NCBI GenBank assembly: GCA_900547725.1
Contig: URHR01000001.1
Coordinates: forward strand, 19,894-83,893
DNA length: 64,000 bases
Source: an uncultured Eubacteriales bacterium
GTDB taxonomy: Bacteria > Bacillota > Clostridia > Oscillospirales > CAG-272
Reading direction: 5' to 3'
In this document: positions 29,701 to 54,104 of the stretch, piece after piece
Position numbering within the stretch: position 1 is the first letter of the stretch
Layout of the letters: every line of letters starts with the position of its first letter
The notes under the pieces: model-generated
Seen by the model: only the letters and a program-made list of their open reading frames with translations
What the model was told of the DNA's origin: nothing
Database searches by the model: none
Program-made: the position numbers and the translations under genes

Positions 29701-31509
29701 CTACCGATTGGCAAATACAAAATCAATAAAGATGGGGAAATGATCCGAAGCAGAGAGCGTACACTCATCGGCTATACAACCGTACACACGCACATCTGCC
29801 TCTCCTGTCGCTAAAAAGATATTGTCAAAGCTAAGTTGCCCTTGGTTATCATAACCGATGCCTCCAGCCGGCAACATCATACCATGGACCCGATCAAATC
29901 TCGGATAATCATGTGTCGATTTTGTAGTGGATACAAAATCGGTCGCAAGATCTCTTGTATGCCGGTATCCCGCTGTATTGACAATATAAGAATAGGTAGC
30001 GCTGGAGTGATTGAAGTTAAAATCTCCAATTAAGAATACCGGAACTCCCGAATACCTCTGCGATAGACTTTGAATCAGCGCCTCAATCTCCTGAACCTGT
30101 CCCAGCCCGACGACAGCATTTCCGCCTTCGAGATGAGTATTGACCACGATATAGTTTTTACCGTTGGCTTTATTCCGCAATACAGCCCAACTCAAAACCC
30201 GTGTTTCGCCTTTTGGTAATTGTTGATTCTCATAAATGTGATAATCGCTTTCCAGTACCTCTGTGGTGGCAGTGTGATAGAGGATGGGGCAAACATTATA
30301 TTTCCGGTATACCTCAGGCATCTCAGGATTCATGCTCTCCCGATATCCCAATGCTTCCAAAAGTGTGATAATGTTATTTTCGTTTGTAAGACGATTGTTA
30401 AAATCACATTCCTGCAATCCCAATACATCCGGCATATACTGCTTAATCATCTCACTCTGTAACCGGTTTCGCGCTGCAATATCCGGATGCCCCCAAAGTA
30501 CATTGTAGGACATTATGCGCACGTCACCTGCCGGCAAATAGGCATACTTGGTGGATTGAGTAAGTTTTGTAAGATGATCCTTATAATTGCCTTTAACGGA
30601 AAATCCATCTCGGAACGGGTAATAACCGTTTGGTGCCGCAGTTTCGAGGTATCGAAAAATCCCTTCAAATCCATAATAAGTGGAAGCAGCAAGCGTAATG
30701 CTTTTTTCAGACACTGTAATCTCAAAATCTCCCTGCGGCAATGCTTCGCTTTCCTCAATCACAATTTGTATCCCATCACCTGTCGGTGCGGAAGTGGTAG
30801 TTACCAAAGACTTTCCCGAAAGTGTCTTGATCGCCTCGCTTACACGATACGCATATCGAGCTGGCATCTGCGCCGCGCTATCATACACCACGCAGTAATC
30901 CGAAGCCGGATAATCAAAAAATGGGAACAAAGAAAATTGGATTCTCTGTACGGCCAAATAATTACGTGGTATCAACAATTCCGCCAATACCGGTGTTGTC
31001 GGCAGTTCTCCTTCCGGCTCTGCACCAAATACATCCTGCACAAACTGCGAAATTGCCAAATATAAACCGCTTTGTGTTTCGGAGTTAAAAAGCAATTTGT
31101 CCCCTACAACTGAAACGGAATATCCTTGTGCGTAGTCTACATCGCTTTTCTCTGTCTGTTCCGGACGATTCGTTATCCCCAACAAAATCTCCTTTTCGGC
31201 TCTCTCACCGCCACCCATATCCGAGGTTTCGGAATCCTTCCTCACCTGCAATTTGGCACCGGTATATGCTTCTACCGTTCCGGCCAACCGTTCTGCCATT
31301 GCCCGCACATATGTTTTGGGGTGCTCCGGAATCACAATTACATAGTCAGTTTTGTGATTTTTAACTACCTGCAAATTTTCTGTTTTCATCGGTCCTGTTG
31401 TGTCTGACAGACCGCCGGAATTTTGCGCATTTTTTCCATTACAACCAAACAGTAAAGCAATCACAAGTAATATCCCCCATGATGCAAACCTTTTTGATCG
31501 ACATTTCAT
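29701..31509 (-). CDS. Lipoprotein with an N-terminal alpha/beta module and an EEP-fold hydrolase domain
   Basis: Lipobox GILLVIALLFGC. N-module motif EILLGITNRPEQ. EEP motifs RIMSYNVLWGHP, VLGLQECDFNNR, LIGDFNF, SASDHFPIFIDF. Confidence 0.85.
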   Translation of the reverse strand: MKCRSKRFASWGILLVIALLFGCNGKNAQNSGGLSDTTGPMKTENLQVVKNHKTDYVIVIPEHPKTYVRAMAERLAGTVEAYTGAKLQVRKDSETSDMGGGERAEKEILLGITNRPEQTEKSDVDYAQGYSVSVVGDKLLFNSETQSGLYLAISQFVQDVFGAEPEGELPTTPVLAELLIPRNYLAVQRIQFSLFPFFDYPASDYCVVYDSAAQMPARYAYRVSEAIKTLSGKSLVTTTSAPTGDGIQIVIEESEALPQGDFEITVSEKSITLAASTYYGFEGIFRYLETAAPNGYYPFRDGFSVKGNYKDHLTKLTQSTKYAYLPAGDVRIMSYNVLWGHPDIAARNRLQSEMIKQYMPDVLGLQECDFNNRLTNENNIITLLEALGYRESMNPEMPEVYRKYNVCPILYHTATTEVLESDYHIYENQQLPKGETRVLSWAVLRNKANGKNYIVVNTHLEGGNAVVGLGQVQEIEALIQSLSQRYSGVPVFLIGDFNFNHSSATYSYIVNTAGYRHTRDLATDFVSTTKSTHDYPRFDRVHGMMLPAGGIGYDNQGQLSFDNIFLATGEADVRVYGCIADECTLSASDHFPIFIDFVFANR

Positions 31510-31638
31510 ATTCTAAACCTCTATCACAAAATCAAAATTCCAATTATAGGGTATCCCGAACAATTGTTATTCGGAATACCCCTTTTTGTATCAATCTATT
31601 GAACCAACATCATCGGCAGGCTATTCTTTAGCCGCACT

Positions 31639-31758
31639 TTAAGGATTGCCCCATTCCTTTTTATCTTCGCCATAAGGCTGGGAAATGGATACAGATTCGG
31701 TCAAAATATCTTGCGGCAGAGGCATAAAAAGCGCCTCGGGTCTTTGATAACTTTTCAC
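31639..31758 (-). CDS. Micro-ORF P3 (39 aa, GTG start), member of the QDILT peptide family
   Basis: Not in the ORF track. My translation is (M)KSYQRPEALFMPLPQDILTESVSISQPYGEDKKEWGNP. RBS AAGGAGGAA lies 8 nt upstream and abuts the TAA stop of the GLUG gene. Confidence 0.55.
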   Translation of the reverse strand: MKSYQRPEALFMPLPQDILTESVSISQPYGEDKKEWGNP

Positions 31759-31771
31759 AGAATGTTCCTCC

Positions 31772-33499
31772 TTATTCCTTGTATGCGTCTGCAAACGCCT
31801 TTATTTTGGCAAGCGAACTATTACTGTAAGGACTGTAATTTCCTTCTTTTTCCACATAGTAGGGATAGTCCTCAGATTGTGCATCTGCGCGATCGGCATA
31901 AGCTTCCCGTGCAACAGATGCAATGGTACGGGAGTGATCCTGTTCGATATAATCCGAATAAAAAGTAACGGATAAATCTCCAACAGTAATCGTCAGGTAT
32001 CCGACCGCACTGTATGCCAAGTTGTAGTTGGACTCAAACAGGTTAGCTACCGCACCGGAAAAGGTGTATGCAGTGTCGGTCTCCTCTAAAAATTTATAAA
32101 CGGTTGTGTCGAACGGTACGTTAATGTAAGGATCAAAAGCAAACCCTTGCTCTTTCTTGTATGTATCCAAGGCATCAGCGGTGAAAGTACCAACAGCCTT
32201 TACATATTTGGTTGGCGCGATGAGGGTGCCGATTTGCACGGTAACGTTGTCTGCTTTAAGCAGCGCATCTAACGTAGATTTTTTGATTTCAGTATCAAAA
32301 CGCAGACCTGTGGGATCGTCCAGCCGTACAGAAGCACCGGTCAGAGTTTTGAGAGTAATGTCGGTTACACAACCGGATGCACTCAAATTCCCCTTCCCCT
32401 TGTTTCCGGCCAAATTATGACCGCTAGCATAGCAGTTTTTCAGGTTTAACTGCTTCGCCTCATTCATACCAACCAGTTCACCCATAAAACCGGGGTCGGT
32501 TCCTTTACCGGACAGCATCTTGCCGGCATTAAAGCAATTCTCTATATTATAAACTGCCTTACTTCTGGCATCGCCAATGATACCGCCGGTGCGGCCATGT
32601 CCACGATTGGTCTCCACAAAGATATCCCCATAGTTCACACAGTTGCTGATAGATACCGTTGTATCTGTAGCCGCATCACCAACGGCTACGATACCACCAG
32701 AATACGCGATGGTAGCAGATCCGGTAAAGATTTGCGAAATATCTGCATAATTTGTGCAATTGGTTATCTGGGCTGCCTCGATTCTGGCCGCAATTCCGGC
32801 TGTATATTGCCGCTCTTTATTGGTGCCAGAAGTCGTTACCTGAAGTTGAATCTTTCCGTGTGCCGTACAATCCTGAATTTTACCTCCGGCGGCCAACATG
32901 CCGGTAATTCCGCCAAAGTAAAAATCAACTGATTTTGCTTCACGGGTAATTTGCACATCAGCATACACGGTGCAATTTTCAACAGCAGAACCGCCATAAA
33001 CAGATGCGCACAGTAAGCCGCTATAATTATTCTTTCTTGATCCGGCGCGTATATGACCGTGCACTGTGAGATTCTTTACTACAGCACCTCCATCCAACCT
33101 ACCAAAGAGTCCCGGTCTGTAATCCCGTTCCTCATTGATTGCAAAACCGGTTATGACTTTACCGTTTCCGTCAAATTTCCCCTTAAACGCTTTTCCTGCA
33201 TCATTCTGATTACCGATCCCTGTCCATTCCCGACCGCCAAGATCAATATCCGCAGTCAGAATATAATATTGATTATACGTAGCACTTCCATTTGAATTTA
33301 CAAGAGAGGCCAAATAAGCCAATTCTGAACCGTTTGAAATCTTCCACGGGTCATCATCAGTACCGGATCCACCGGAAAAAGATGCAGCAACGCTACCATC
33401 CCACGCAGCAGTGTCTGCTGCGATCGCCGGAAATTCCAGTAAAAAAGTCGAGAGCAACATGGCAAAAATGATGAAACATGATAAAACTTTGGTCTTCAT
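31772..33499 (-). CDS. Secreted GLUG-motif / beta-helix repeat protein
   Basis: Signal peptide MKTKVLSCFIIFAMLLSTFLLEFPAIA. N-terminal region DPWKISNGSELAYLA..ADIDLGG..FDGNGKVI..GLFG. Repeated GGI(T/V/I)G blocks. RBS GAGGAGG. Confidence 0.8.
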   Translation of the reverse strand: MKTKVLSCFIIFAMLLSTFLLEFPAIAADTAAWDGSVAASFSGGSGTDDDPWKISNGSELAYLASLVNSNGSATYNQYYILTADIDLGGREWTGIGNQNDAGKAFKGKFDGNGKVITGFAINEERDYRPGLFGRLDGGAVVKNLTVHGHIRAGSRKNNYSGLLCASVYGGSAVENCTVYADVQITREAKSVDFYFGGITGMLAAGGKIQDCTAHGKIQLQVTTSGTNKERQYTAGIAARIEAAQITNCTNYADISQIFTGSATIAYSGGIVAVGDAATDTTVSISNCVNYGDIFVETNRGHGRTGGIIGDARSKAVYNIENCFNAGKMLSGKGTDPGFMGELVGMNEAKQLNLKNCYASGHNLAGNKGKGNLSASGCVTDITLKTLTGASVRLDDPTGLRFDTEIKKSTLDALLKADNVTVQIGTLIAPTKYVKAVGTFTADALDTYKKEQGFAFDPYINVPFDTTVYKFLEETDTAYTFSGAVANLFESNYNLAYSAVGYLTITVGDLSVTFYSDYIEQDHSRTIASVAREAYADRADAQSEDYPYYVEKEGNYSPYSNSSLAKIKAFADAYKE

Positions 33500-33617
33500 A
33501 AGTTCCTCCTCAATTTTGTTTTTTATGATTGTTCCTTCAACGCCTATTTGCGTTGAAGGATCAATTCCTTAAAATATGTTACTGACCAAGTGCAGAAAAT
33601 GGATTACCATGGCAAAG

Positions 33618-33830
33618 TCAATACCGTTTACTCCACTCCCGGTTATCGGTAACATCCGGCTTAACCGGTTCATCTGAGTCGGCAAATTCGGTTGACTCCG
33701 GAAATTCAGCATTGGTTCCGGATGTCTTGTCAACCGCCTGTTGCATAGGCTTTTCACAGGCGCATAAGGAAGTGAGCAGCAGTGTCAGGCAAAGCAAGAA
33801 AATCATCCATACTTTATTCGTTCTATTCAT
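33618..33830 (-). CDS. Small acidic lipoprotein (70 aa)
   Basis: Lipobox LLLTSLCAC. RBS AGAGGAA 6 nt upstream. It lies between the SBP and GLUG genes. Confidence 0.55.
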   Translation of the reverse strand: MNRTNKVWMIFLLCLTLLLTSLCACEKPMQQAVDKTSGTNAEFPESTEFADSDEPVKPDVTDNREWSKRY

Positions 33831-33973
33831 ATTGATTCCTCTGCTTTGTTCATGTTAATTCCCCTGCCGCGCGACACCGGCACAGGTAAAAAGCAAGTAC
33901 ATTCCGATTAGAGGGTAGAAGCTCCGGAGCCGGAGTTACATATCAATCTTGCAATTGTCATCGAACAGATCTG

Positions 33974-35506
33974 TTATCTGGCTTCTTCCGAAGCCTTCCA
34001 CAATTCTTGGAAAGTCTGGTTCAGTTTAATTACTTCCTCAACGATCAAATCCCGTTTGCCCTTCAGAAGTGAACTGATCGTATTGGTACCGGAAGCATAC
34101 ATATCTCTCAGCTGTGTCGTACCGAACGCCTTAAAAGCAGTTCCAATATAGATATTAGCAGGATCAAAGAAGGTTGATGATTCCATAATCTCCAACATTC
34201 GTACGGATTCGGGATCCTTGGCATATCGCGTGGTCAGAGCTCTTTCGTAGTAAGCCGATTTTACAGTTTGATAACTCTCAGAAGCATAAGCCTCCAAGAA
34301 CTGGCTGGATTCCACCCGTTTGGCTCCCCCCACCGTGCGCGGGATAGCATACAGCAAGCATTGATCCTGAATATAGGAATAGTATTCATCCTGTGTCTCG
34401 GAATCAGATTTTGGCAGCGGTAAAATGCCATAGCCCTGTTTGGTTTCACCCAGATTCTTCATACCCGTTTCCTCCAGGAAGAAAAGCCGGAAGCTGGTCA
34501 AAGCTGCGGTACCTGCTGTAAATTTTCCGACCACATCAAAATAGGTAGAGCTGGTATATGATCCATCGCCATACATCATTCCCAAAATCTTATCTATTGC
34601 ATTAGAAAAATTGGCGGTAGAACTCAAATCATTGACATAAAGATTCTCCCCATCCTTTCCAACCACACGCAGACCGGCAGAGGCCATATAGCCATCCGTG
34701 AGGGAAGACCCCGATCCTACCCACATCACATAACCGAATTGATCATCAACATTCACGCCATTACCATCGAGATCGTTGTAAAAATTCGCTGACAGTTCAG
34801 CCACCTCATGAAAATCCCAATCTCCGTTCAGAACCGTTTGATAGGGATATTCCACACCAACATCGGTAAACAAATTTTTATTAAAAAACATTCCTATCAT
34901 GTACCGATAATAAGACAGCGAGAACTGACCGGTAAGAAGATACTGTGCATTTCCCACAGAGAGCGCATCATTGTAACCTTGAGAATAGTAATCCTTCTCT
35001 GTGTTGATAAAAGGCAAATCCAACAGATTGGCAAAATGCCCCAGCTGAGCCATCCCACACATACGATATCCGGCGGTAGTCATAATATTATAGGTATCAA
35101 AACCGCCATTGATCAGATTGGTAATTTCGTCAGTAATAAAATTGCTGTTTGTATCACCGACCCGTTCGTACACTTCAATTCTACAATTCAACCGATCTTC
35201 CAAATTAAGATTTCGTTTGAACATAGCATCTTGTACTACATTTACCTCAGACTCCTCCTGCAGCATTTCCCGCACCGTTTCACTCTGCACGTAGGAAAAA
35301 AGTCGGATAGTATGTTGCTCAAAATCCAAGTCATCCGGAAGATCGTCTACATCGTTGCGAATTTCTTCTGTTTGATCTTCTCCCCCAGTTGTCGTGGCAG
35401 TTTCTGTACTCTTCGGTTTTTCGGTCTTTGTTCCGCACGAAGCCAACGGAACAAGAAGCAGTAGAATGGCACAAAAAAGCGCCAATCTTTTTTTCAATAC
35501 GTCCAT
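33974..35506 (-). CDS. Large lipoprotein solute-binding protein (LplA-like)
   Basis: ATG at 35506; the track start is TTG. Lipobox LLLLVPLASC. Block MFKRNLNLEDRL is shared with the other large SBPs. Confidence 0.85.
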   Translation of the reverse strand: MDVLKKRLALFCAILLLLVPLASCGTKTEKPKSTETATTTGGEDQTEEIRNDVDDLPDDLDFEQHTIRLFSYVQSETVREMLQEESEVNVVQDAMFKRNLNLEDRLNCRIEVYERVGDTNSNFITDEITNLINGGFDTYNIMTTAGYRMCGMAQLGHFANLLDLPFINTEKDYYSQGYNDALSVGNAQYLLTGQFSLSYYRYMIGMFFNKNLFTDVGVEYPYQTVLNGDWDFHEVAELSANFYNDLDGNGVNVDDQFGYVMWVGSGSSLTDGYMASAGLRVVGKDGENLYVNDLSSTANFSNAIDKILGMMYGDGSYTSSTYFDVVGKFTAGTAALTSFRLFFLEETGMKNLGETKQGYGILPLPKSDSETQDEYYSYIQDQCLLYAIPRTVGGAKRVESSQFLEAYASESYQTVKSAYYERALTTRYAKDPESVRMLEIMESSTFFDPANIYIGTAFKAFGTTQLRDMYASGTNTISSLLKGKRDLIVEEVIKLNQTFQELWKASEEAR

Positions 35507-35549
35507 TTCCAATTAACTCCTCTCTTTCTTCCGATTTATCGGTACTTAT

Positions 35550-35558
35550 ATTATACCA
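35550..35558 (-). promoter_or_regulatory. Extended -10 element upstream of the SBP gene
   Basis: Minus strand reads TGGTATAAT. No good -35 is seen. Confidence 0.4.
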
Positions 35559-35833
35559 CTTCTAAATGACAAAAAAAGTGGTGATTTCGTCTAAAATGGT
35601 GGGTAAAACCGTCTGGTTTCAAATCAATTCTGTAACATTTGATAGCTTTACGCTATGAACCCGATAATAGCCACTTTCGGACATCTCCAAAAGCCGGTGC
35701 ATTTTGCTGATTGAATATTGTCTGCCTCCATTTGTTGAGCAACAAAATACTGATCATTTTAACGAATCCCCCCGGGGTAAGCACATTTTCGTACTCGCTT
35801 TGTGTCGAATTTCTCTCGACATAACAAAACCTC

Positions 35834-35860
35834 CTACGGTAGTTGTTGATACTACCATAG
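35834..35860 (-). terminator. Terminator-like hairpin after the AraC gene
   Basis: On the minus-strand RNA this forms a 10-bp stem (CUAUGGUAGU / ACUACCGUAG, one G-U pair) followed by GAGGUUUUGUU. Confidence 0.5.
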
Positions 35861-35911
35861 AAGGTTTTTTTCAATACCCGCTTTTTACGGAGTTGTTCAC
35901 TTGATACTTTT

Positions 35912-36856
35912 TTATTTCGTTAATGATCTCCCGCTATATATTTTTTGAAACTCTCTGGGTGTGCTACCAATGATTTTTTTGAATACTGTGCGAAAAGAAT
36001 GGACATCGTTGTACCCAACCATTTCGGAAACCATCTCAATTGAAGCATCCGTTTCAATCAAAAGTTCACAGGCATTTTGAATCCGAACTTTCTGCAAATA
36101 CTTGTTAAAGGTCATTCCGGTCACTTCATAAAATTTTTTGCTGATATAATTTGAATTGAAATACTTCTCTTGACAAATCTTTGAGAGAGTAATATTCTCT
36201 GTGTAATTTTCCATTACATAGTCGCAAATTTCCTGTATCGCCTTATGCTTGGGCCTTCCGCTCAAATTCGGTAAATGCTGCTGAAAAGCAGTGAGGAGAA
36301 TCTCTATTGCCATACAACGCAGCAAAGCATGATGCCCTGGTAGGTTTTTATGATATACATCCAACGCTTTTTCAAACAACGCCAATATCTGTCCATCGCT
36401 ATCATAATATACTCTGTCTGCTGGATCCATTTTAAGCAAAGAAACGTCAAAATCAATGTTTTGATGCCGGCATAACTCCGAGAGTGTACATTCCCCCGCT
36501 GTTTCTATCAAAAAATCAGGCGTAAACAGGAAATTGATCAAAACCAAATCATGGCTGGCGTTTTGATAATCATGAAATGTATTATAATCAATAAAGATGA
36601 AATTTCCTACTCCCAAATGCTGATATTCGGACACAACACCCTTCTTTTCAATATGCTGACTTACAGTGCCATTCAATACATATACCAATTCGAAGCATCG
36701 GTGATTATGCAATAACATATTGGCTTGTTGCGTTTTCAGAACTACACAGCTCTTGGAAATCAGTAAAGTCTTACTTGCGCCATTTTTAATTGCAGAAATA
36801 TCAGGACTGATTCCGGTAAGTGGGTTGCTGTTGTAAAATGCTTTTCTGTTTTTCAT
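35912..36856 (-). CDS. AraC/XylS-family transcriptional regulator
   Basis: HTH region TFNKYLQKVRIQNACELLIETDASIEMVSEMVGYNDVHSFRTVFKKIIGSTPREF. Start at MKNRKAF with a GGAG RBS. Confidence 0.9.
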   Translation of the reverse strand: MKNRKAFYNSNPLTGISPDISAIKNGASKTLLISKSCVVLKTQQANMLLHNHRCFELVYVLNGTVSQHIEKKGVVSEYQHLGVGNFIFIDYNTFHDYQNASHDLVLINFLFTPDFLIETAGECTLSELCRHQNIDFDVSLLKMDPADRVYYDSDGQILALFEKALDVYHKNLPGHHALLRCMAIEILLTAFQQHLPNLSGRPKHKAIQEICDYVMENYTENITLSKICQEKYFNSNYISKKFYEVTGMTFNKYLQKVRIQNACELLIETDASIEMVSEMVGYNDVHSFRTVFKKIIGSTPREFQKIYSGRSLTK

Positions 36857-37153
36857 AACAATCTCCAAGAATTCGATGCGCATAATGATATACAATCATA
36901 AGCAGATCAATATCACAATTCAAAAAGAAAACATGCCGTTCTGCTGTAATCTCAGAGTGATGTGCCGGTTATCAGCTCATCCGTTGGTGACAGGTTGTAT
37001 GCATATTCATTCCAACGTAACCAATTTCCTCCACTTTCATTCGCAAATGTGATCGTATAATTCAGTGTCGGATTATCCTCCGCACCAGTCGGTTCATACT
37101 ATCATCGCGATACCGCCCCTTCAACTTGCCATTTTAGCCTGCCTCGTTGCTCT

Positions 37154-37546
37154 TCACTTCATATTATACCACAATTCAGTGACATTGTCAATCACGAAAA
37201 ACCAAACCGCCCAAAGACACAATTTCTTCCTTACTGCACCGTAAGAGGCACCGTGTCTGAATATCTGAATGAGAATATCCGGGTCTGATATTTGTGGAAG
37301 CGTGCTGTCTTTTTGGTCTTTGAATACCACTATATATATTCTTTCTCTGTTTTGTGGGATATTGCCATGTTCCATGGGGTTTAATACTCTGTATGTATAT
37401 TTGTAGCCCAATTCTTCAAGTTGCTCACATATAACTTGAAAGATATTGCCATTATCATGAATTTCTTTCACTTTTTGGCGCAATCCGTCGGATTTTCGCA
37501 ATCCGCATTGGCTTTTTTCAATAAGTATCTTGTTTTTTTTCGTCAA
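37154..37546 (-). pseudogene. Fragment of a DNA (cytosine-5) methyltransferase
   Basis: LEELGYKYTYRVLNPMEHGNIPQNRERIYIVVF resembles C5-MTase motif VIII (QxRxR) and its context. The N-terminal catalytic motifs and the C-terminal TRD are absent. Confidence 0.5.
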
Positions 37547-37559: not shown

Positions 37560-37602
37560 CATATAAAAAATCAGAAAAAAAGACGAAGGGTGCGCCGCTG
37601 TT

Positions 37603-41909: not shown

Positions 41910-43454
41910 ATGAAACTGATTTGCAAATGGCTGTCACTCTGCCTGTTTGCGGCAATGCTGCTGACAACGTTTGCGTCCTGCGCCAAGCCGAAGCCCGAAA
42001 ATCCGGGCTCCGGCACCGCAACAAACGGAACGCAAAGCGAACAGACGCGCGAGGAAGTGACCACCAAAGTCTCCGCTCTCGAACAGAGCGGCTTGGAAAA
42101 GAAAAACTTCGGCGGCAGAAAAATGAAGATCTGGCACGGCTCCGGCACAGTCTGGTCGCCTTATCCGATGGAAGTTACCCTTGACGAGGCGCTGACCGAC
42201 ATCATTTATGACGGCGCCTACAAGCGGAACACGGGGTTGGAACGCGACCTGAACATCGCGCTTCAGTTCGTGGACTCGGGAACCGACCCGAACACGGTAG
42301 GCGACAACACCAACACCGACAAAAAAGCGCTTGATATGCTTTGGAAAAGCGGCGACTCCGCCTCGTATGACATGATTCTTGCGGGCGGCTTTGCAAGCGC
42401 TACGCTGGCTACGGAAGGCTTCTTCCTTGACCTGGACAACTGCAAGGATGTCAAGCCCGACGCGGACTACTACGAATCGCGCGTGAACCGTCAGGTCCGC
42501 CTGATGGATCACCAGTACTTCGCAAGCGGTTTCTACTCCGTAACGGGAACAAGCGGCATTGAGGTCATTTATGTCAACACCGACATCATCAACAGCGTGA
42601 ACACCGATCCCGACAATCCCGTTTCCACGGAAATCCTTTACGAAAAGGCGCTGAACAAGACCTGGACCGTTGATTATATGCTGGAGCTGGGAAGCCGCTA
42701 TGCTCTCCCCTCCTCCAACACCGGGCACTATGAAAGCGACCAGTACGGCACCATCTTCTCCTATCACAGTATGCACAGCGTCTACCACGGCCTCGGCGGA
42801 ACGGACATCGTCTGGAACGACGCAAGCAACCGCTACAATGTTGTGCTCTCCAACCAGTCGAACCAGAAGATCTTTGAGTACATCAGAGAGAATATCACCA
42901 AAAAGAACGGCGGTGAAGTTCTGCTCTCCAAGCGGTCTCCCGGCGCGGGCGTTGAAGAATTCCTTGCAAAATCGGCTCCGTTCTTCTGGGGCGGTCTGAA
43001 CAACATCAAGGAAGTCATCGCCGACGGAATGCACTGGACCATGCTCCCTCCCCCGCTCTTCAAGGAAGGGAACGACTACAACTCCTTCACCTCCGCATGG
43101 TGTCTGAACTTTGCGGGAATCCCCTCCAATGTCACGGACTCCGAGACTTCTTCCTATCTCTATGAGATGTTCATGTGCTACTCCTACGATTACCTCTATC
43201 CCGCTTACTACGAAACCTGCTTCCAGCTGACCTATCAGCCCGACTCGACCTCGGTTCGGATTTTCAATCTGATCGCGCGTTCCAGATATGTGTCTATGGT
43301 AAACCTTTACTCTCTGAACAACTCCGGCGTGGAGATCAAAGACATTTGCAGAGACACAAACCTTGAGCTTGGTTCCTCGCTGAAGCGTGCAAGCGAAGTG
43401 ATTGCGGCAAATCTCACCAAGCTGGTTGAGAACTTCTCCAAGAAAGAGCAGTGA
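41910..43454 (+). CDS. Large lipoprotein solute-binding protein (LplA-like)
   Basis: Lipobox AAMLLTTFASC. Block AYKRNTGLERDL is shared with the other large SBPs. Confidence 0.85.
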   Translation: MKLICKWLSLCLFAAMLLTTFASCAKPKPENPGSGTATNGTQSEQTREEVTTKVSALEQSGLEKKNFGGRKMKIWHGSGTVWSPYPMEVTLDEALTDIIYDGAYKRNTGLERDLNIALQFVDSGTDPNTVGDNTNTDKKALDMLWKSGDSASYDMILAGGFASATLATEGFFLDLDNCKDVKPDADYYESRVNRQVRLMDHQYFASGFYSVTGTSGIEVIYVNTDIINSVNTDPDNPVSTEILYEKALNKTWTVDYMLELGSRYALPSSNTGHYESDQYGTIFSYHSMHSVYHGLGGTDIVWNDASNRYNVVLSNQSNQKIFEYIRENITKKNGGEVLLSKRSPGAGVEEFLAKSAPFFWGGLNNIKEVIADGMHWTMLPPPLFKEGNDYNSFTSAWCLNFAGIPSNVTDSETSSYLYEMFMCYSYDYLYPAYYETCFQLTYQPDSTSVRIFNLIARSRYVSMVNLYSLNNSGVEIKDICRDTNLELGSSLKRASEVIAANLTKLVENFSKKEQ

Positions 43455-45403
43455 GGAAAAGAAACGGATTCGGTGCATGCGTGGCAGTGCTGTTGCTCCT
43501 TTGTCTGGCGGCAACAGCGCTCTGCGCGTGCAAAATCGGTTCCGGAGGCACCGAGACCGAAGAAAAAACAACTGCCTCCGATCGGAGCGAAACGGAAACA
43601 ACTATGACGGAACCAGATACCTCATTTCGGATCTTCGGGAATCAGAAGCTGACCCCGATCGTCCTCTCCGACATTCCGGACCGGAATGCCGACGATATCA
43701 AAAAAGAACTGAACATTGGCTTGCGGCGCGCGTTCGGGGTGTTCCCGATCTATGAAACGGCGGCGCAGACCGCCGTGAACGCCGACAGAACGGAAATTCT
43801 TGTCGGGACCACAAACCGCCCCGAAAGCACGGGCGCCGTCCCCGAGGCGGGGCAAAACGACGCTTGGTACTATGTTGGCGTGCGCGGAAACAAGCTGGTC
43901 ATCAACGCCTCCAACGGCTATTACCTTGACCGCGCGATCGAATACTTCGTCTCCTGCCTGCCGACCGAGCAGACAGACCGCTTCTCCCTTCCCGCCGACT
44001 TCGGGAAGCAGGAGATTTTCCGCGACTATTTCGCAAGCCGCTGGAAGCTGACCGATCTTCCCGCCTACACGGGCGCGCGGATCACGCTCTCGCCCGATAC
44101 CTACACCACGGGCGCGCTGATGACGGAACTTGCAAACAAGCAGAAAGCCGACGCGCGGGTCCAGTTGGTACTTGCAACCAACAACGCCGAATACCTGCGC
44201 TATGTCGACCGACTTGTGCAGTACGGATTCCTGAAAGAAAGCAGCTCCGAGGCGGAAAACAACCTTTACACAACGCTGACGCGCGGAAAAGAACGGGTTT
44301 ACATCTATTTCACCGCCGCAATGTCCCGTGTTACGGTTGTCTATGAGAAAAACGGCGCTTCGGTTTCCGAGGTGTCCTACACGACAGCCAACGCAGGACA
44401 GAGCGCCGAACTTTACCAGTACGGTCTGAATATGCGCCCCTACAGCGACCCGACTTCGGGCGCGGAAGGCTATGAAATCAACTGCGGAATGCTGTATGTC
44501 ATCCGCACCGCCGATAACCGCCTGATCGTAATCGACGGCGGCGACCGCGTGCAGATGATGACCGAAGCCGCAGACGGGACCTTCCCCCACGCCGCGCTCA
44601 ACCGCTTCCTGCACAGGATCACCGGGACAAAAGAAACCGAAAAAATTACGGTTTCCTGTTGGTTCCTCACGCACGGACACAGCGACCACCTCGGTTTTGC
44701 TTATTTCCTGCAACAGTATGCGGATCAGTATGACCTGAAATCGGTTTGCGCCAATCTCGCCACGGGGTTGATGACATCCGATTTTGCCGAGACGAAAATC
44801 CTTTCCGATTTCGGCACATGGCTGAAGCGCACCTATCCCGCTTGCCGCGAGGTGCGGCTCCATACGGGGCAGAAGCTGCGTTTTGCCGATGTGGAAATGC
44901 AGGTGCTCTACACGCACGAGGACGCGCTGTCCCCTGCGGGCGCCACGCAGATCAAGGACTTCAACGACAGCACAACGGTTGTTAAAATCACGCTCGGCGG
45001 AACCGACCTGCTGGTGCTTGGCGATGTCTATCACATCGGGGAGGATTACCTGACCGCAGCGTACACCGAGGCAACCCTGCATTGCGACATGATGCAGGTT
45101 TCGCATCACGGCTTCAACGACCTGCAACGCCTCTCCCCGCTTGTGCGGGCAAAGGTTGCGCTGATTCCGCAGGCTTACGGCTGGTTCGTTTATGCGAGCG
45201 GAAGCAGCGACGGGACCGACTATTGGACCTATTGGTCGGCGCGGATGAAAAAGGTCATTGACGATCTGAAGGCGTATTCCGACCCCAACATGATATTCTT
45301 CTCGGGGAACGAATCCATGACCGTCGGGCTTTCCTGCCGACAGGGCGAAGTCACGGTCATTCTGGAGCCTGCGCGGCGGTATCGGCTGAGCGACCTCGGC
45401 TGA
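43451..45403 (+). CDS. Lipoprotein with an N-terminal alpha/beta module and a metallo-beta-lactamase-fold (ComEC-like) hydrolase domain
   Basis: The GTG start overlaps the SBP stop (GTGA). Lipobox LLCLAATALCAC. N-module motif EILVGTTNRPES. MBL motifs LTHGHSDHLG and QVSHHGFN. Confidence 0.85.
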   Translation: MRKRNGFGACVAVLLLLCLAATALCACKIGSGGTETEEKTTASDRSETETTMTEPDTSFRIFGNQKLTPIVLSDIPDRNADDIKKELNIGLRRAFGVFPIYETAAQTAVNADRTEILVGTTNRPESTGAVPEAGQNDAWYYVGVRGNKLVINASNGYYLDRAIEYFVSCLPTEQTDRFSLPADFGKQEIFRDYFASRWKLTDLPAYTGARITLSPDTYTTGALMTELANKQKADARVQLVLATNNAEYLRYVDRLVQYGFLKESSSEAENNLYTTLTRGKERVYIYFTAAMSRVTVVYEKNGASVSEVSYTTANAGQSAELYQYGLNMRPYSDPTSGAEGYEINCGMLYVIRTADNRLIVIDGGDRVQMMTEAADGTFPHAALNRFLHRITGTKETEKITVSCWFLTHGHSDHLGFAYFLQQYADQYDLKSVCANLATGLMTSDFAETKILSDFGTWLKRTYPACREVRLHTGQKLRFADVEMQVLYTHEDALSPAGATQIKDFNDSTTVVKITLGGTDLLVLGDVYHIGEDYLTAAYTEATLHCDMMQVSHHGFNDLQRLSPLVRAKVALIPQAYGWFVYASGSSDGTDYWTYWSARMKKVIDDLKAYSDPNMIFFSGNESMTVGLSCRQGEVTVILEPARRYRLSDLG

Positions 45404-45580: not shown

Positions 45581-46417
45581 TCAGCTGCGGCGGAGCAGAC
45601 CTTCCTTTTCCAGGTATTCGCGCAGCATCAGCGGCCAGTCGGTCTGAATCAGGTCAAAGCCGCGTCCGGCAAGCCAGCCCCAGCCGTCGGCGGGATCTCC
45701 GGTCAGGGAGCGGTCGTCGGAATGCCCGGCGCAAAGCTGCTCACGGTAGTTGTAAATAATGGAATTGACCCAGACCAGCTTGCCGTCGCGGTGCATCCGG
45801 TCAAGAAACGGCTCCGATGCGACCTCTGCCGACTCCTCGCGGAACAGAACCTCTGCGCCGATATAGTTGATCCGCCGGTGCATCAGCCGCTCATGCTCCG
45901 GGTGCGTATCCCGGACAACCGGCATGAACGGCAGATCCGGCGCGACCTCCTCCAGCACGGTCAGCACCCTTTCGGAGAGCGAGGACTTCACCACCACGCG
46001 GTCGGTCATTCCGTGCCGGCGGATGGCTTGATAAATTTCCTTCGGGTGTCCCCAGAACTTATCCACATTGATCAGACACCGGCTGCCGAACTGCTCCAGC
46101 ACCGCGTCCAGCGTTGCAACGCCGAACTGCGTCGGAGCCCGGTCGAAGTTGACATACCGCAAGCGGCTGATCTCCTCTGCGGTCATGTACGGCAGGCGTT
46201 CGGCGCACCACAGGTGAACCGGCTCCATACCGGGATGAAAGATGAAGAGCTTTCCGTCCGCACTCATTTCCACATCGATCTCAATCATGTCGGCTCCCTG
46301 CCGCAGTGCGATCTCATACGCCGCCAGCGTGTTGCACGGGATATTTCCGCCCGATACACCGCGGTGTGCCACAATCAGGCGGCGTTCTGCTGCCGCTTCC
46401 GATAAGCTGTTCTGCAT
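45581..46417 (-). CDS. Glycerophosphodiester phosphodiesterase (GDPD) family, cytoplasmic
   Basis: LIVAHRGVSGGNIPCNTLAAYEIALRQGADMIEIDVEMSADGKLFIFH. Start at MQNSL with a GAAGGA RBS. Confidence 0.85.
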   Translation of the reverse strand: MQNSLSEAAAERRLIVAHRGVSGGNIPCNTLAAYEIALRQGADMIEIDVEMSADGKLFIFHPGMEPVHLWCAERLPYMTAEEISRLRYVNFDRAPTQFGVATLDAVLEQFGSRCLINVDKFWGHPKEIYQAIRRHGMTDRVVVKSSLSERVLTVLEEVAPDLPFMPVVRDTHPEHERLMHRRINYIGAEVLFREESAEVASEPFLDRMHRDGKLVWVNSIIYNYREQLCAGHSDDRSLTGDPADGWGWLAGRGFDLIQTDWPLMLREYLEKEGLLRRS

Positions 46418-46461
46418 GGTTTGTCCTTCTTTCCTGTTTGAGTGATTGATTCCCGGAGCTC

Positions 46462-47628
46462 TCAGATCCGGTCGCACGGGCGGTTGTGGAACGGCAGCGG
46501 GAACCACGCCGAAGCCGGCTGGGACAGCGGCTTTCCGGGAATTCCGCAGGGAGACGGCAGTCCGAGCAGCAGGCGGGTCGCCTCCTCCCCGGTCAGAACC
46601 GTTCCGGCGATCCCCTCCGTCCGTGTCACCTGCACCGTCCCGTCCACCGTTACGGTCAGCGTCCCGTATCCGTCAACGGCAAAGCGGACGATGCCGGGAA
46701 GCAGCGGAAAATGCTCCGCCCGTGCGCGCAGACCTGCCTCGATCAGTCCCCGATAGTCAAAAATACGGTAGCGCTCCCGCCCGGACAGCTTTGCGGCAGT
46801 CGCAATCGGCAGCAAAAGCGCCAGCTTTCCGGTCTCCGCCGGCGCAATGCCGTAGAGCAGCAGGGAGGATCTGCCCACCTCATTGAAGAATGCGTGCAGC
46901 GCGTGCGGCAGGAATGCGGGATCTTCCAGCTCCAGCTCACTGACGGCGTCCAGCCCGGAATCCGCGCACAGATACCCTACCGTTTTTCCTGCCCGCAGGA
47001 TCCGGTACGGTCTGCGCTTTCCGGAGCGCAGAGTCGGAAGGAAATCCGCCTCCGTCCGCGCGGCATGAACCGGCGTCCGGTCATACAGCGACAGAAACAA
47101 CCGGATTTCCTCCGGGGCAGCGTCACCGGACAGCTCCGCGACCGCGAAATCAAGCGCCGGGAAGGGCAGGCAGTCATCCCGGCTGAAGGTCAGCTCCATG
47201 CCGTAGCCACCGGTCGAATAGCCGAAATGCGCATACCGGGAGCGTTTGCCCCCCAGTTCCCCGACTGTAACGCCCCGATCTTCCATTTCGGCGTTCAGAC
47301 GGGTCATCAGCTCGCGCATGATGCCGCGACTCCGGTATTCCTGTAACACGCCGACCGTGCCGACGCCGCCGACCTGTACCGTCTGCCCGAACATCCGGAC
47401 CGGATGGACACGCAATGCGGCAAGCCCGACCAGACGGTCTCCGTCAAACGCCAGCAGATGCGGCGGCATGACATCGGCGCTCCCGTAAAGCTTCGGCTGA
47501 AGCGTGCGAAAATAGGAGCGGTCGTAAACCTCCGTACCGTCTTCATTGACGCGGAGCGAAAAAATGCGGTTTGCGGTATCCAGGATCCGGTCGAAATCCG
47601 CCGCAGTTGACCAGCGATAAGTGATCAT
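46462..47628 (-). CDS. GNAT N-acetyltransferase, Eis-like (with a C-terminal SCP2-like region)
   Basis: VGGVGTVGVLQEYRSRGIMRELMTRLNAEMEDRGVTVGELGGKRSRYAHFGY. RBS AAGGAG. Confidence 0.8.
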   Translation of the reverse strand: MITYRWSTAADFDRILDTANRIFSLRVNEDGTEVYDRSYFRTLQPKLYGSADVMPPHLLAFDGDRLVGLAALRVHPVRMFGQTVQVGGVGTVGVLQEYRSRGIMRELMTRLNAEMEDRGVTVGELGGKRSRYAHFGYSTGGYGMELTFSRDDCLPFPALDFAVAELSGDAAPEEIRLFLSLYDRTPVHAARTEADFLPTLRSGKRRPYRILRAGKTVGYLCADSGLDAVSELELEDPAFLPHALHAFFNEVGRSSLLLYGIAPAETGKLALLLPIATAAKLSGRERYRIFDYRGLIEAGLRARAEHFPLLPGIVRFAVDGYGTLTVTVDGTVQVTRTEGIAGTVLTGEEATRLLLGLPSPCGIPGKPLSQPASAWFPLPFHNRPCDRI

Positions 47629-47739
47629 AGCAATCTCCTTGCAACAAAATCATTCCGTTCTGCGAAAAAGGGACTCCCCATCATTATAGCACAAAGCAGG
47701 CGGAATGTAAAGTGGTTTTTCGGCTTTTCCGGTGCGGGT

Positions 47740-49383
47740 TTACCCGGCAAAATCATAGGTTATCAGAATCGGACAATGATCCGACGGCGCCTCACCGTCA
47801 ATCAGGCTGTCATCCACCGTATAGCGGGTGACAAGAAAATCCTCGCCGGTGAGGAAGAAATAGTCGATCACCGAGGTCCGGAAGGTCGGCTTCCGGTCAG
47901 CCTCCAGCGCCACATCGGACGCAGTCACGAAGCCGGATTCCATCAGATGCCGGACGGACGGCTCGGAGGCAATTTCGTTGAAATCCCCGCTGATGACCGT
48001 CGGAACACCGGCATATTTCTCAAGGAACGCGGTCAGCGCCTGCACCTGCGCCAGACGGACTGCCGGATCCTTGGCGTGGTCGGTGTGCGTGTTGACGCAC
48101 AGAAACCGCTTCCCATCCGTCCGGCGCCGCAGGATCGCATAGGTGAATATCCGGTTGCAGATGGACCCGTCCACGCGCGAAACGGTGTCCGGCGTCCCGG
48201 TCAGCCACCGGGTTCCGCTTTCCTCCACCTCAAAAAGCGCACGCCGGTAAAAGATTGCGCTGTGCTCCCCGCTTCCGCCGGCGTCCCGTCCGACACCGAC
48301 CGAGGCGTATTCCGTCCCCAGACCGTCGCGCAGTGCCGCCATCCACTCCTCGCTTGCCTCCTGTACGCCGAGCGTATCGGGCAGATGCTTCCGGATCATG
48401 GTCAGCACCCGTCCCACGCGCGCTTCGGTCATGTTGTGGACCAGCAGATTAAAGCTCATGGACCGGATGGAGGTATCCTCGCAGGAAACCGCTCCGTCCC
48501 GCACGTCCAATGCCGCATTTCCCTCCGCCGTCCTCAGTGCCTCCAGCAGACGGTTCACCGCACGGTAAAGCTGCGGGATATCGCTCCCGTACAGAAGCAC
48601 ATCCCCTCCCGCTGCGCCGGCATAAAAGCAGGGCGATGCAGGCAGGTTCTCCGGAAGGACACCGACAGAGCCGATCCGAATGCACGGTCCGGCAGGCTGA
48701 GCTGCCCCTGCGGCGGCGGTCGGCAGAAGATAACCGGTCCGCTCACGGATCACATTCCCCAAGCGCTCTGCCAGCGTCCGGCAGGCGGGACGGTTCTCAT
48801 AGATCAGCGTGTAGGCTCCGAGATCGGTTCCGTTCAGCGAAACCTCCGACACTGCGTAATCTCCCTTCACAAAACGCTCCGCTTCCGGCAGGAAGAAGGA
48901 CTCCGCCCCCGCCGGCGGAAGCAACCCGGAAAACGCACGCACCGCCGCCAGTACGCTTTCATGCGACAGCCCTGCCAGCACCACTTTTTTGCCGCACAGC
49001 CGGATGATGTAGTCCCGGTCGCGGTGCAACTCCGCGCAGACCGCCCGGCTCTCCGGTCGGTTGGTGGCGCCGACCAGAATTTCGTACTCCCCTACCGCGT
49101 GTGCCGAATCGTTTTCCCGGACAAAATCATTCCGGACAGGAAGGGTCGCACCGAATCGCTCCCGCAGGGTATTCCGCAGGGTCTGTAACTCCCGGTACAG
49201 TGCCTCGTTCAGCTCTTCCTCGGCATAAACGATCGAATACGATGCCAGCGCAGTGACCGGCAGGGACCGATCCGCCGCAGAGCCGGTCGTATCGGCATTC
49301 TCTGCCGGTTTGCCTGTTCCGCAGCCGGCAAGCAATACCGCCGCCAGCAGGAACAGAGAAATCCGTTTCCATGTTCTTTTCAT
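47740..49383 (-). CDS. Lipoprotein with two N-terminal alpha/beta modules and an EEP-fold hydrolase domain
   Basis: Lipobox LLAAVLLAGC. N-module motif EILVGATNRPES. EEP motifs MSFNLLVHN, TLGVQEASEEW, ISGDFNE, PSDHCPILITY. Confidence 0.85.
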   Translation of the reverse strand: MKRTWKRISLFLLAAVLLAGCGTGKPAENADTTGSAADRSLPVTALASYSIVYAEEELNEALYRELQTLRNTLRERFGATLPVRNDFVRENDSAHAVGEYEILVGATNRPESRAVCAELHRDRDYIIRLCGKKVVLAGLSHESVLAAVRAFSGLLPPAGAESFFLPEAERFVKGDYAVSEVSLNGTDLGAYTLIYENRPACRTLAERLGNVIRERTGYLLPTAAAGAAQPAGPCIRIGSVGVLPENLPASPCFYAGAAGGDVLLYGSDIPQLYRAVNRLLEALRTAEGNAALDVRDGAVSCEDTSIRSMSFNLLVHNMTEARVGRVLTMIRKHLPDTLGVQEASEEWMAALRDGLGTEYASVGVGRDAGGSGEHSAIFYRRALFEVEESGTRWLTGTPDTVSRVDGSICNRIFTYAILRRRTDGKRFLCVNTHTDHAKDPAVRLAQVQALTAFLEKYAGVPTVISGDFNEIASEPSVRHLMESGFVTASDVALEADRKPTFRTSVIDYFFLTGEDFLVTRYTVDDSLIDGEAPSDHCPILITYDFAG

Positions 49384-49424
49384 AGTAGCCTCATCTGTGT
49401 GTTTTTTACCTCTGTAATCCGGAA

Positions 49425-49462
49425 AGACCGCTGTGTCCGCGTTTCCGGGAACACAGCGGTCT
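49425..49462 (-). terminator. Hairpin downstream of the 49472 gene (weak terminator candidate)
   Basis: A 12-bp stem AGACCGCTGTGT / ACACAGCGGTCT. The U-tract is poor. Confidence 0.35.
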
Positions 49463-49471
49463 GATGCAGGA

Positions 49472-51943: not shown

Positions 51944-52019
51944 AGTTTGTTTCCTTCCTTCATTTTACAGATTTCAGGGTACGGGGTAACGCGTTCACTT
52001 TCCGCTTCTCTCACCTCCT

Positions 52020-54104
52020 CTAAGAGAATTGTCTGACGTAATCCGGCGCGGAGCCGACCTTGTGCGGCAGAGGCAGAATCATGACCGATTCGTCCTCCAT
52101 CAGCAGGTTTTCCCGGACGCTCTTCACGTCGAAATGGTTCCTGGGGCTGTTCCAAAGCCCCTCCTTCATCACAGTCGCATACGGACTGGTCCACAGTGCC
52201 GTATCCGCCGCAATTTTCAGATACATCTGCGTATTCCCGCCGTTGTAGCCGTGGTGTGCCACCTGAACAATATCGCTTTTCAGGGTGTTTCCGTACATCC
52301 GGTAGACAATGGTGGATGCATCGTCATGCGCATCGTTCAGAAAGACAATCCGCTGTCCGCCCAGCGTAACGGTGTAGATCAGGGACGAGGAGTTGGTCAC
52401 CTTCATCACTGCGGGAGACAGGTCCTCGTGCGTGTAGAGCATATCCACCATTGCATCGCCGAACCACATCAGCTGTCCTGCGTGCGGGATGATCAGCGAA
52501 GCGTTGCTGTAGGTGACCGCGATTGCCTGCTTGGCACGCGTAATCATTTCGGTCATATCCGGCGTCACGTTCGCCGCCTCCACATTTTTGCTGTAGGTCT
52601 CATAGGACGGAATGTTCAGCACAACCGACTCCATCGTCACCTTCTCGCCGTAGTGCTCGGCAAACCCGATGAAGCCGCCGTAGTGATCCACGTGTGCGTG
52701 TGAAAGAATCCATGCGGCAATTACCGGCTTTCCTCCACGCACATTCTGCGCCACCAGCTGTTCGTAGATCGACTTCCAGTTTTTCTCATAGTTGAGTCCC
52801 CCGTCGATGACCAGAAAACGTCCGTCCGACAGCCGGAGGATAAACGCACAGGCGCCGTTGATCTGCGTCAGCTGCGGCGTGGTCACCTTGTCCGTGGAAT
52901 CCGGACTTTGCCTGCCCAGCGTCACGTTTGCCGCAGTCTCCGAAGCAATGCGTGTGATCTGATAGAACTTCGCATAGTTGACGCTGAGCAGGTTGTAGCC
53001 GTCGGTATAGGTGGCAAACAGATTGCCGTTTACCTCCCGCCGGGCATAGCAGGTAAAACCAAGGGTCTCCAGCTTTTCAAGGTACGCGCGGTATTCCTCC
53101 GCCGTTGTGTTGTGATACTGGACATAGTAGGAATTCAGATCCGACCGATTCATCAAATCGTAGCCGGTCTCCCGGTATTGCGGAATGGTTCCGAAGCCCT
53201 CCGCCGCCCGCGTTCCGGTCAGCGCCGGGAAGATAGAGAAGGCGTCTCCCTTTCCACTGGAAATCATATTGCACAGCTCCTTTGTAACATCCGGAAGATA
53301 GCCCGTCAGAGCCACCGAGCCGGAAACGCGGTCAACCTGCAGGGTACGGTCCATAAACAGAGAACGGTTTTCCCGGGAAAGAGACCGGTTGGTGTCCCCG
53401 ACCAGAATCTCCCGCCCGGCACGCGGCTCCAGATCCGTCACCACGGCGGGAGCAAAGCCGAACCGCTCCGAGATGGCATTCCGGATATCCTCCGCGGCGT
53501 TTTTCGCCTCGGCACTGTCGGCCGCGTAGACAATCCGAAGGTCGCGGTTCTGCGGGGAAAAGATCTCCACGGACGGGTAGCTCTCACTGGTATAGGTATA
53601 TTCGTGCGGCAGCGTCAGCCCGCCGTCCTGCGATTCGCAGACCGTCAGCAGCTGCTTTACGGCAAGCGGATACAGGGCATCATCTGCGGCAACAATCACC
53701 GCCTGACCGTCCGCAATCCGTATGGAAAATCCGTGCTCCGGCACTCCCTGCCCGACCTGCGCCGAGGCTTCAAACGAGGTCTCCCCCATGAGGATCATCG
53801 GACTGCCGTCCTGCCGGACCAGCGAATCGGCGCCTGCCTTCAGGGACACGCCGCAAAGGACACGGATCCGCGTCTGCAGTTCCGTCACCGCATTCCCAAG
53901 GCACGCACTTGCCCGGAGCGGATAGACCAGCCGTCCGACCGATTCCCCGTCCCGAATCAACGTCATGCGTGCATTCTGCTCTGCGGTTGTCTCCGTTGTT
54001 CCGGTGTCAGGCTGCTTTGGTTTGCCGGTGCAGGACGCGGTCGCCGACAGACACAGCAGCATCGCCCCCGCCGCAGCGCATAGCCTGAGTGTTCGCAGCT
54101 TCAT
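52020..54104 (-). CDS. Lipoprotein with two N-terminal alpha/beta modules and a metallo-beta-lactamase-fold (ComEC-like) hydrolase domain
   Basis: Lipobox LLCLSATASC. N-module motif REILVGDTNRSLS. MBL motifs LSHAHVDHYGG and QVAHHGYNGG. RBS GGGGAGG. Confidence 0.85.
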   Translation of the reverse strand: MKLRTLRLCAAAGAMLLCLSATASCTGKPKQPDTGTTETTAEQNARMTLIRDGESVGRLVYPLRASACLGNAVTELQTRIRVLCGVSLKAGADSLVRQDGSPMILMGETSFEASAQVGQGVPEHGFSIRIADGQAVIVAADDALYPLAVKQLLTVCESQDGGLTLPHEYTYTSESYPSVEIFSPQNRDLRIVYAADSAEAKNAAEDIRNAISERFGFAPAVVTDLEPRAGREILVGDTNRSLSRENRSLFMDRTLQVDRVSGSVALTGYLPDVTKELCNMISSGKGDAFSIFPALTGTRAAEGFGTIPQYRETGYDLMNRSDLNSYYVQYHNTTAEEYRAYLEKLETLGFTCYARREVNGNLFATYTDGYNLLSVNYAKFYQITRIASETAANVTLGRQSPDSTDKVTTPQLTQINGACAFILRLSDGRFLVIDGGLNYEKNWKSIYEQLVAQNVRGGKPVIAAWILSHAHVDHYGGFIGFAEHYGEKVTMESVVLNIPSYETYSKNVEAANVTPDMTEMITRAKQAIAVTYSNASLIIPHAGQLMWFGDAMVDMLYTHEDLSPAVMKVTNSSSLIYTVTLGGQRIVFLNDAHDDASTIVYRMYGNTLKSDIVQVAHHGYNGGNTQMYLKIAADTALWTSPYATVMKEGLWNSPRNHFDVKSVRENLLMEDESVMILPLPHKVGSAPDYVRQFS

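Follow-up and report, generated by a model that had tools for sequence, protein, structure and literature searches.

Domains of the GH20b (PF02838), GH67N (PF03648) and NAGLU_N (PF12971) types are N-terminal, non-catalytic domains of glycoside hydrolases (GH) of families GH20, GH84, GH67, GH89 and GH115. To our knowledge, domains of the GH20b type have been described solely at the N-terminus of glycosidase barrels and have been given no role other than stabilisation. For instance, GH20b is needed for the expression and stability of LnbB, and the documented role of these domains in GH20 enzymes is only that of structural stabilisers (PMC4449183). Here, we describe a module of this fold in a 64-kb stretch of DNA from an uncultured Eubacteriales bacterium (contig URHR01000001.1 of assembly GCA_900547725.1; all 64,000 nucleotides are hereafter called the window), where it stands at the N-terminus of lipoproteins whose catalytic domains belong to two unrelated folds, EEP and MBL. 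It represents a divergent subfamily within the Glyco_hydro_20b/Glyco_hydro_67N/NAGLU_N group.

The catalytic domains of these lipoproteins also have described relatives. BT3783 (PDB 3MPR and 4C1R) and BT2630, mannose-6-phosphatases of the yeast-mannan polysaccharide utilisation loci of Bacteroides thetaiotaomicron, are EEP enzymes that act as surface or periplasmic glycan-processing phosphatases and are encoded in glycan-utilisation loci (PMC4978465). On the MBL side, Pce/CbpE of Streptococcus pneumoniae (PDB 2BIB and 1WRA), a teichoic-acid phosphorylcholine esterase, and the C-terminal MBL domain of ComEC (PDB 9IC4) are both binuclear metallo-phosphodiesterases at the cell surface. Finally, the DUF4838 (PF16126) glycosidases correspond to GH163/GH185, with BT1035 and Sp_0475 as examples (PMC10570127), and are of interest here as they may follow the same module (see below).

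In a Pfam scan of the window, four open reading frames (ORFs) matched PF03372 (EEP) and two matched PF00753 (MBL, Lactamase_B); their translations and Pfam matches agree with the strands and folds given by a first-pass annotation, which had been made from the sequence of the window. These ORFs and their modules are as follows.

29701..31509, minus strand: EEP_29701, a lipoprotein of 602 residues with lipobox, linker, module 1, divergent module 2 and EEP domain (PF03372, 1.6e-9).
31012..31377, minus strand: module copy 1 of EEP_29701, motif EILLGITNRPEQ (profile E=1.9e-28).
30613..30921, minus strand: divergent module copy 2 of EEP_29701 (PF02838 E=9.5e-4 when taken alone; hhalign 94.5%).
47740..49383, minus strand: EEP_47740, a lipoprotein of 547 residues with two modules and a BT3783-related EEP domain.
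48886..49260, minus strand: module copy 1 of EEP_47740, motif EILVGATNRPES (profile E=1.2e-27).
48499..48858, minus strand: module copy 2 of EEP_47740, with the degenerate motif CIRIGSVGV (profile E=8.2e-17).
3668..5419, minus strand: EEP_3668, a lipoprotein of 583 residues with a divergent module 1, a possible second module and an EEP domain.
4877..5248, minus strand: divergent module of EEP_3668, motif lost (VIAVGNVAGYAG; profile E=5.4e-23).
43451..45403, plus strand: MBL_43451, a lipoprotein of 650 residues with one module, an alpha/beta middle domain of ~120 residues and a binuclear MBL domain.
43622..43987, plus strand: module of MBL_43451, motif EILVGTTNRPES (profile E=1.5e-25), the sequence used for structure prediction.
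52020..54104, minus strand: MBL_52020, a lipoprotein of 694 residues with two modules, middle domain and MBL domain.
53604..53975, minus strand: module copy 1 of MBL_52020, with the degenerate motif MILMGETSFEAS (profile E=1.1e-26).
53235..53579, minus strand: module copy 2 of MBL_52020, motif EILVGDTNRSLS (profile E=2.1e-22).
28472..29683, minus strand: EEP_28472, an EEP paralogue that lacks a signal peptide and lies 18 nt downstream of EEP_29701; its N-terminal region (29381-29683) resembles a single divergent module.

The module was followed with a hidden Markov model (HMM) built from the four motif-bearing modules of the window and run against the 11,420 six-frame ORFs of the 2.2-Mb assembly. 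This starting model already found 13 extra ORFs in the genome at E <1e-5, and it converged after three iterations on 29 module copies in 21 ORFs, which match the nearly full model of ~115 positions (the module itself has ~120 residues) with E-values from 3e-12 to 7.5e-34; those in the window lie at about 1e-17 to 1e-28. The iteration was required to recover the copy of EEP_3668, which is a true, although divergent, member of the family. An AlphaFold2 (AF2) model of the isolated module, calculated from the alignment of the 29 sequences, reached a predicted local distance difference test (pLDDT) of 89.2 and a predicted template modelling score (pTM) of 0.85, with the topology beta-alpha-beta-beta-(short alpha)-beta-beta-alpha. 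The motifs and the Y-x-h-x-h-x-G-x-K-h-h hairpin were found as the first-pass annotation had quoted them, and in the model the EILVG strand is beta-3, T-N-R-P-E-S forms the following loop and short helix, and the hairpin corresponds to beta-4/beta-5.

The relationship to the glycosidase N-domains is seen at several levels. Isolated modules give weak but consistent Pfam matches to Glyco_hydro_20b, Glyco_hydro_67N and NAGLU_N. EEP_29701 exceeds the PF02838 cut-off of 26.1 with 29.4 bits for the protein (residues 205-281), its second module being the copy of the window nearest to canonical GH20b, while the other copies score 12-22 bits; most copies lie below the gathering score. Against the PDB, the 29-copy profile matched the N-terminal domain of the GH84 O-GlcNAcase BT_4395 (E=0.03) and also the N-domain of a GH67 alpha-glucuronidase. 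Additionally, the best 50 Foldseek matches to PDB structures (probability ~1, TMq 0.40-0.61) were all N-terminal accessory domains of GH84, GH20, GH67, GH115 and GH138 enzymes. The first-pass annotation had pointed to a likeness to the N-domains of GH20/DUF4838-type proteins, and it was correct in this, as the Pfam, PDB-profile and Foldseek matches all lead to such domains; its central proposal, that one homologous folded module is joined to two unrelated catalytic folds, holds as well.

The module thus shares with the GH20b group its alpha/beta fold and strand order, its N-terminal placement and the succession of an h-h-h-G strand, a beta-hairpin and a long helix, and the sequence and structure searches match domains of this group only. 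By contrast, in the window it is combined with EEP and MBL domains and not with an adjoining (beta/alpha)8 glycosidase domain, it often occurs in tandem and it has a T-N-R-x-E-S loop motif of its own. DUF4838 glycosidases form a bridge of sorts, as in 5 of 146 close relatives a module of this subfamily precedes a DUF4838 catalytic domain, while the proteins of the window carry no DUF4838 domain.

Five of the module proteins have signal peptides ending in a lipobox (LFGC, LAGC, LVGC, LCAC or TASC). The first-pass annotation had placed the module just after the lipobox; the shared N-terminal position stands, but not the direct adjacency, as the module begins 20-35 residues past the lipobox Cys, behind a disordered linker rich in T, E, P and G. 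In the AF2 model of full-length MBL_43451, for instance, the linker (residues 27-54) has a pLDDT below 50. Both copies of the duplications proposed in EEP_47740 and MBL_52020 were found by the iterated profile, but EEP_29701 also has a second, divergent copy that had been missed (Pfam GH20b; hhalign 94.5%). EEP_3668 may also have two, the second matching the module profile weakly (hhalign 9%).

EEP_28472 shows neither a signal peptide nor a lipobox Cys in its translated N-terminus, and it had been described as keeping a remnant of the module. Its residues 48-129 share 29% identity over 83 residues with residues 248-330 of EEP_29701, that is, from the second half of module 2 through the linker before the EEP domain. 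In comparison with the module profile, its N-terminus matches the C-terminal half only, with a weak hhalign probability of 12%; on the pairwise comparison, the region may be better read as one divergent module. In the same protein, Gln replaces the His of the N-T-H motif (LNTQLEGG, compared with VNTHLEGG in EEP_29701 and VNTHFDH in 3G6S), and the protein could represent a duplicate that is inactive or in decay.

The idea that the module is peculiar to this neighbourhood was rejected, as 29 copies occur in 21 lipoproteins throughout the genome. Nine of these carriers have an MBL partner and six an EEP; the remaining six are singletons, namely a GDSL/SGNH esterase, a GH16, a GDPD+Metallophos protein, an AXE1 esterase, a 1018-residue protein whose CBM4_9 match is weak and stays under the threshold (22.3 bits; cut-off 25.9) and a 459-residue carrier of unknown fold, which brings the partner types to at least 8. 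The window represents 2.9% of the assembly but contains 5 of the 21 carriers, and the phenomenon is genome-wide, with local enrichment in the window. Beyond this genome, the module profile was searched against 1.84 billion cluster representatives of public proteins, 10,352 of which matched at E<=1e-3; stricter limits of E<=1e-10 and E<=1e-30 left 4,274 and 679, and some proteins had as many as 8 copies. The first-pass annotation had called the shuffling within one neighbourhood unusual, a view that 21 carriers in the genome, at least 8 partner types and 10,352 public representatives do not support.

The strongest match in the representative search, P0110, has 8 module copies and, including a member of its cluster, a length of 3,270-3,306 residues; that member, P0257 (MCR4728637.1), is recorded as a 3,306-residue protein of a Lachnospiraceae metagenome-assembled genome (MAG).

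Partners were counted by Pfam in 146 of the best 150 public matches. Phosphoesterases dominate, with 51 EEP, 23 MBL, 12 GDPD, 4 Metallophos and 3 alkaline phosphatase domains; the others were GH16 (6), DUF4838 (5), BNR_2 (4), GH5 (1) and apiosidase (1). In these 146 relatives the module itself reached a significant Pfam score as GH20b in 9 cases, GH67N in 8 and NAGLU_N in 2 (best values 5e-10 and 1.1e-11), and almost all are lipoproteins, as judged from the near-invariance of Met1 and the lipobox Cys.

The taxonomic distribution of the subfamily is patchy: it is present in 22 of 25 genomes within the genus (including that of the window; 2-32 copies each), in 4 of 16 that belong to the same order but to other families and in 4 of 301 genomes of an even sample of the phylum (E<=1e-8). 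A search with EEP_47740 returned a single related locus, a 97%-identical copy in the human-gut MAG Clostridia bacterium HGM12690. Named relatives are hypothetical proteins of Clostridia, Oscillospiraceae or Lachnospiraceae MAGs, no NCBIfam model scored above its cut-off for the six window proteins or the module, and we found nothing on this module outside glycosidases in the literature on IPR029018/GH20b-type domains.

How the module reached so many partners was approached with a maximum-likelihood tree of the 29 copies. Copies did not cluster by partner, as the tree needs 9 changes for MBL (9.5 in shuffled trees) and 8 for EEP (8.5 expected by shuffling). The domain being short and saturated, most of the tree is unresolved, with 18 of its 26 inner branches open and long branches. 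Only two branches have good support, and both cross partner folds: one joins the AXE1 esterase and a neighbouring unknown protein of contig C53 (98/96), and the other joins module 2 of an EEP protein with module 2 of MBL_52020 (95/91). The tree supports, at the level of sequence, repeated shuffling between partners, as the first-pass annotation had suggested, and gives neither the direction nor the timing of the swaps. The C53 pair (5338-7704, minus strand, AXE1 esterase; 9246-12299, minus strand, the 1018-residue protein) lies ~1.5 kb apart and offers the best candidate case of a recent local duplication or swap of the module.

With regard to the catalytic domains, the EEP and MBL folds and most other partners are predicted to be phosphoester hydrolases in view of their structural and sequence neighbours. 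EEP_47740 matched Bacteroides EEP structures in the PDB (3G6S, 3e-25; 3MPR/4C1R, ~1e-17, with 9.7e-18 for 4C1R) and belongs, judging from these matches, to the same EEP subfamily as BT3783/BT2630; unlike it, BT3783 is a single domain of ~290 residues, has no module and comes from a Gram-negative host. For EEP_29701, PDE12-type phosphodiesterases are closer, and the BT3783 match falls to 7e-3. By inspection, the YN/FN, QE, (T/F)H, GD(F/Y)N and SDH motifs are present in EEP_29701, EEP_47740 and EEP_3668.

As a sequence search of the PDB gave no relative for MBL_43451, a fold search was needed. The AF2 model of the full-length protein (pLDDT 87.1, pTM 0.84) has Pce/CbpE (1.1e-12) and the ComEC MBL domain (1.4e-12) as its nearest structures, and weak NCBIfam matches to ComEC agree with the latter. 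Among 34 relatives, none of the seven metal ligands varies (HxHxDH and distal residues: H408, H410, D412, H413, H471, D525 and H553). Sequence identity to Pce and ComEC is, by contrast, only 12-15%, and the targeting differs: Pce relies on choline-binding repeats and ComEC is integral to the membrane, while MBL_43451 has a lipid anchor, a GH20b-like module and a middle domain; Pfam scans detected no choline-binding repeats in the MBL proteins of the window. The middle domain (~120 residues, alpha/beta; 43982-44350, plus strand, in MBL_43451, with an equivalent in MBL_52020) lies between module and MBL domain, has only weak Pfam matches (DUF6591 and IseA-like) and does not occur in the EEP proteins.

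The surroundings of these genes fit glycan utilisation. Four paralogous substrate-binding protein (SBP)-like lipoproteins of ~500 residues (19-25% identity, E 1e-5 to 1e-32) are encoded at 5441-6937 (minus), 33974-35512 (minus), 41910-43454 (plus) and 54117-55769 (minus); three of them are immediate neighbours of a hydrolase with the module, and a single gene separates the fourth (33974) from EEP_29701. No ABC permease genes were seen next to the four. AraC regulators are found at 35912, 38456 and 57278, and the window also encodes GLUG-type surface proteins, a GH78 rhamnosidase and a module-less GDPD. The SBP-like gene at 41910 runs 4 nt into MBL_43451, its stop overlapping the start of the latter. 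A module-less EEP of 310 residues lies just downstream of EEP_3668 (2590-3522, minus), and the module-less GDPD, with a DUF4996 domain (45581-46507, minus), lies between MBL_43451 and EEP_47740 and adjoins a GNAT acetyltransferase (46462-47628). In a compositional island at ~20000-37000, the G+C content is 44-46% for EEP_29701, EEP_28472 and the SBP-like gene at 33974, compared with 56% in the genome and 58-62% in the other module genes, and this cassette may have been horizontally acquired. Long antisense ORFs over the module genes were dismissed as artefacts, since most of these genes have 56-62% G+C; they gave no family matches where tested.

We favour, with a probability of roughly 0.6, a reading in which the module is a self-folding accessory or positioning domain of cell-surface phosphoesterases, derived from GH20b and spread by shuffling and tandem duplication. 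Through these two processes, it would have spread in a lineage of human-gut Clostridia onto many lipoprotein hydrolases, most of which have phosphoester-cleaving folds (EEP, MBL, GDPD and Metallophos) and some of which would be carbohydrate esterases or glycosidases. After lipidation of the lipobox Cys, the protein would have a stable N-terminal stalk made of the disordered linker and of one, two or three self-folding modules; by analogy with the role of GH20b in GH20 enzymes, this stalk would stabilise the catalytic domain and keep it off the membrane. Possibly, it would also orient polymeric substrates or aid in their docking, docking being a common function that the first-pass annotation had proposed for the module. 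The catalytic domains would most plausibly be phosphatases or phosphodiesterases whose substrates are phosphorylated glycopolymers, for instance teichoic acids, phosphomannan or capsule, and the hydrolases are found in cassettes with the AraC regulators and SBP-like lipoproteins. The compactness predicted for full-length MBL_43451 (pTM 0.84) may be counted in favour of the stalk.

Several considerations weigh against this reading. A pTM value, which comes from a model, is by itself weak evidence of interdomain packing, and a stabilising role in this subfamily would be assigned by analogy. It is hard to imagine one conserved interface packing against more than eight unrelated catalytic folds, and in the MBL proteins the module is set off from the catalytic domain by the middle domain. 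The occurrence of as many as 8 copies in tandem also points to a module that functions on its own rather than to a purpose-built support. Additionally, a polar motif, E-h-x-h-G-x-T-N-R-x-E-S, is found in 18 of the 29 copies of the genome and is strongly conserved across partners, while it does not appear in canonical GH20b in the one case examined (BT_4395); this conservation hints at a ligand site of the module's own. Moreover, a role as surface nucleases is just as conceivable for the MBL and EEP domains, in line with weak ComEC-like and ExoIII-like matches.

In the main rival reading, the module is an autonomous recognition domain, similar to a carbohydrate-binding module (CBM), and the conserved E / T-N-R / E-S patch in the loop that follows strand 3 would be the site for a common polymeric ligand, either the phosphodiester-linked glycopolymer that is degraded or the wall of the producer itself, for retention, with the catalytic domains as interchangeable warheads. 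We regard this as possible but clearly unlikely. It would explain the independence of the module from the partner fold, seen in the lack of clustering in the tree, as well as the tandem copies (up to 8 per protein), the near-invariance of D, E, I, L, G, R and A over the 146 relatives in spite of their different partners, and the presence of at least one intact motif in 8 of 8 two-copy proteins of the genome. Five different phosphoesterase folds dominate the partner set, which suggests a common substrate class. However, carbohydrate binding is not known for any member of the GH20b/GH67N group, their documented role being structural (PMC4449183). The module itself matched no CBM family in Pfam, the motif is missing in 11 of the 29 copies and 6 of the 21 proteins, and the conserved charged residues might instead form an internal salt bridge. 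A more far-reaching version would make the module a new GH20b-derived, CBM-like family whose E/T-N-R/E-S patch would bind phosphodiester-linked glycopolymers, for example teichoic acids, phosphomannans or capsular phosphoglycans, the 21 lipoproteins constituting, with the SBP-like proteins and AraC regulators, a Gram-positive surface system of phosphoglycan harvest in the gut; we consider this doubtful.

A third alternative, which we consider very improbable, is that of a protein-protein docking unit, analogous to the cohesin-dockerin pair, that would assemble the hydrolases with each other or with the adjacent SBP-like lipoproteins into multi-enzyme complexes at the surface. The occurrence of one module in many different enzymes of a genome would agree with it, and so would the position of the SBP-like genes, three next to module-bearing hydrolases and the fourth one gene from EEP_29701, but that adjacency is equally explained by co-regulated glycan-utilisation cassettes, no partner protein was identified and the fold family offers no precedent. 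Finally, a chance resemblance, in which a short low-complexity or convergent motif recurs on unrelated N-termini of different folds (the outcome that the first-pass annotation had set against its own proposal), was rejected as next to impossible, since, although pairwise identities to the first sequence are low (11-26%), the copies match the HMM over its full length of ~115 positions (E 1e-17 to 1e-34) and the family alignment gives a single confident AF2 fold whose structural neighbours in Foldseek are shared and consistent.

The module is, therefore, a real variant of a known domain type and not a rare event of local shuffling. Its fold and its Pfam group were already known; what is new, with respect to the literature searched, is its systematic tandem use on surface lipoprotein hydrolases that are not glycosidases. 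The same fold is here a portable N-terminal unit of many non-glycosidase enzymes, chiefly of five phosphoesterase folds, within a family of more than 10,000 cluster representatives whose sampled members are unnamed or generically annotated. If the module acted only as a scaffold, these results would still provide an annotation rule for thousands of hypothetical proteins. If, on the other hand, it is true that it binds a polymer, it would represent a new family of binding modules and would suggest that phosphorylated glycopolymers are a class of nutrients used by uncultured gut Clostridia.

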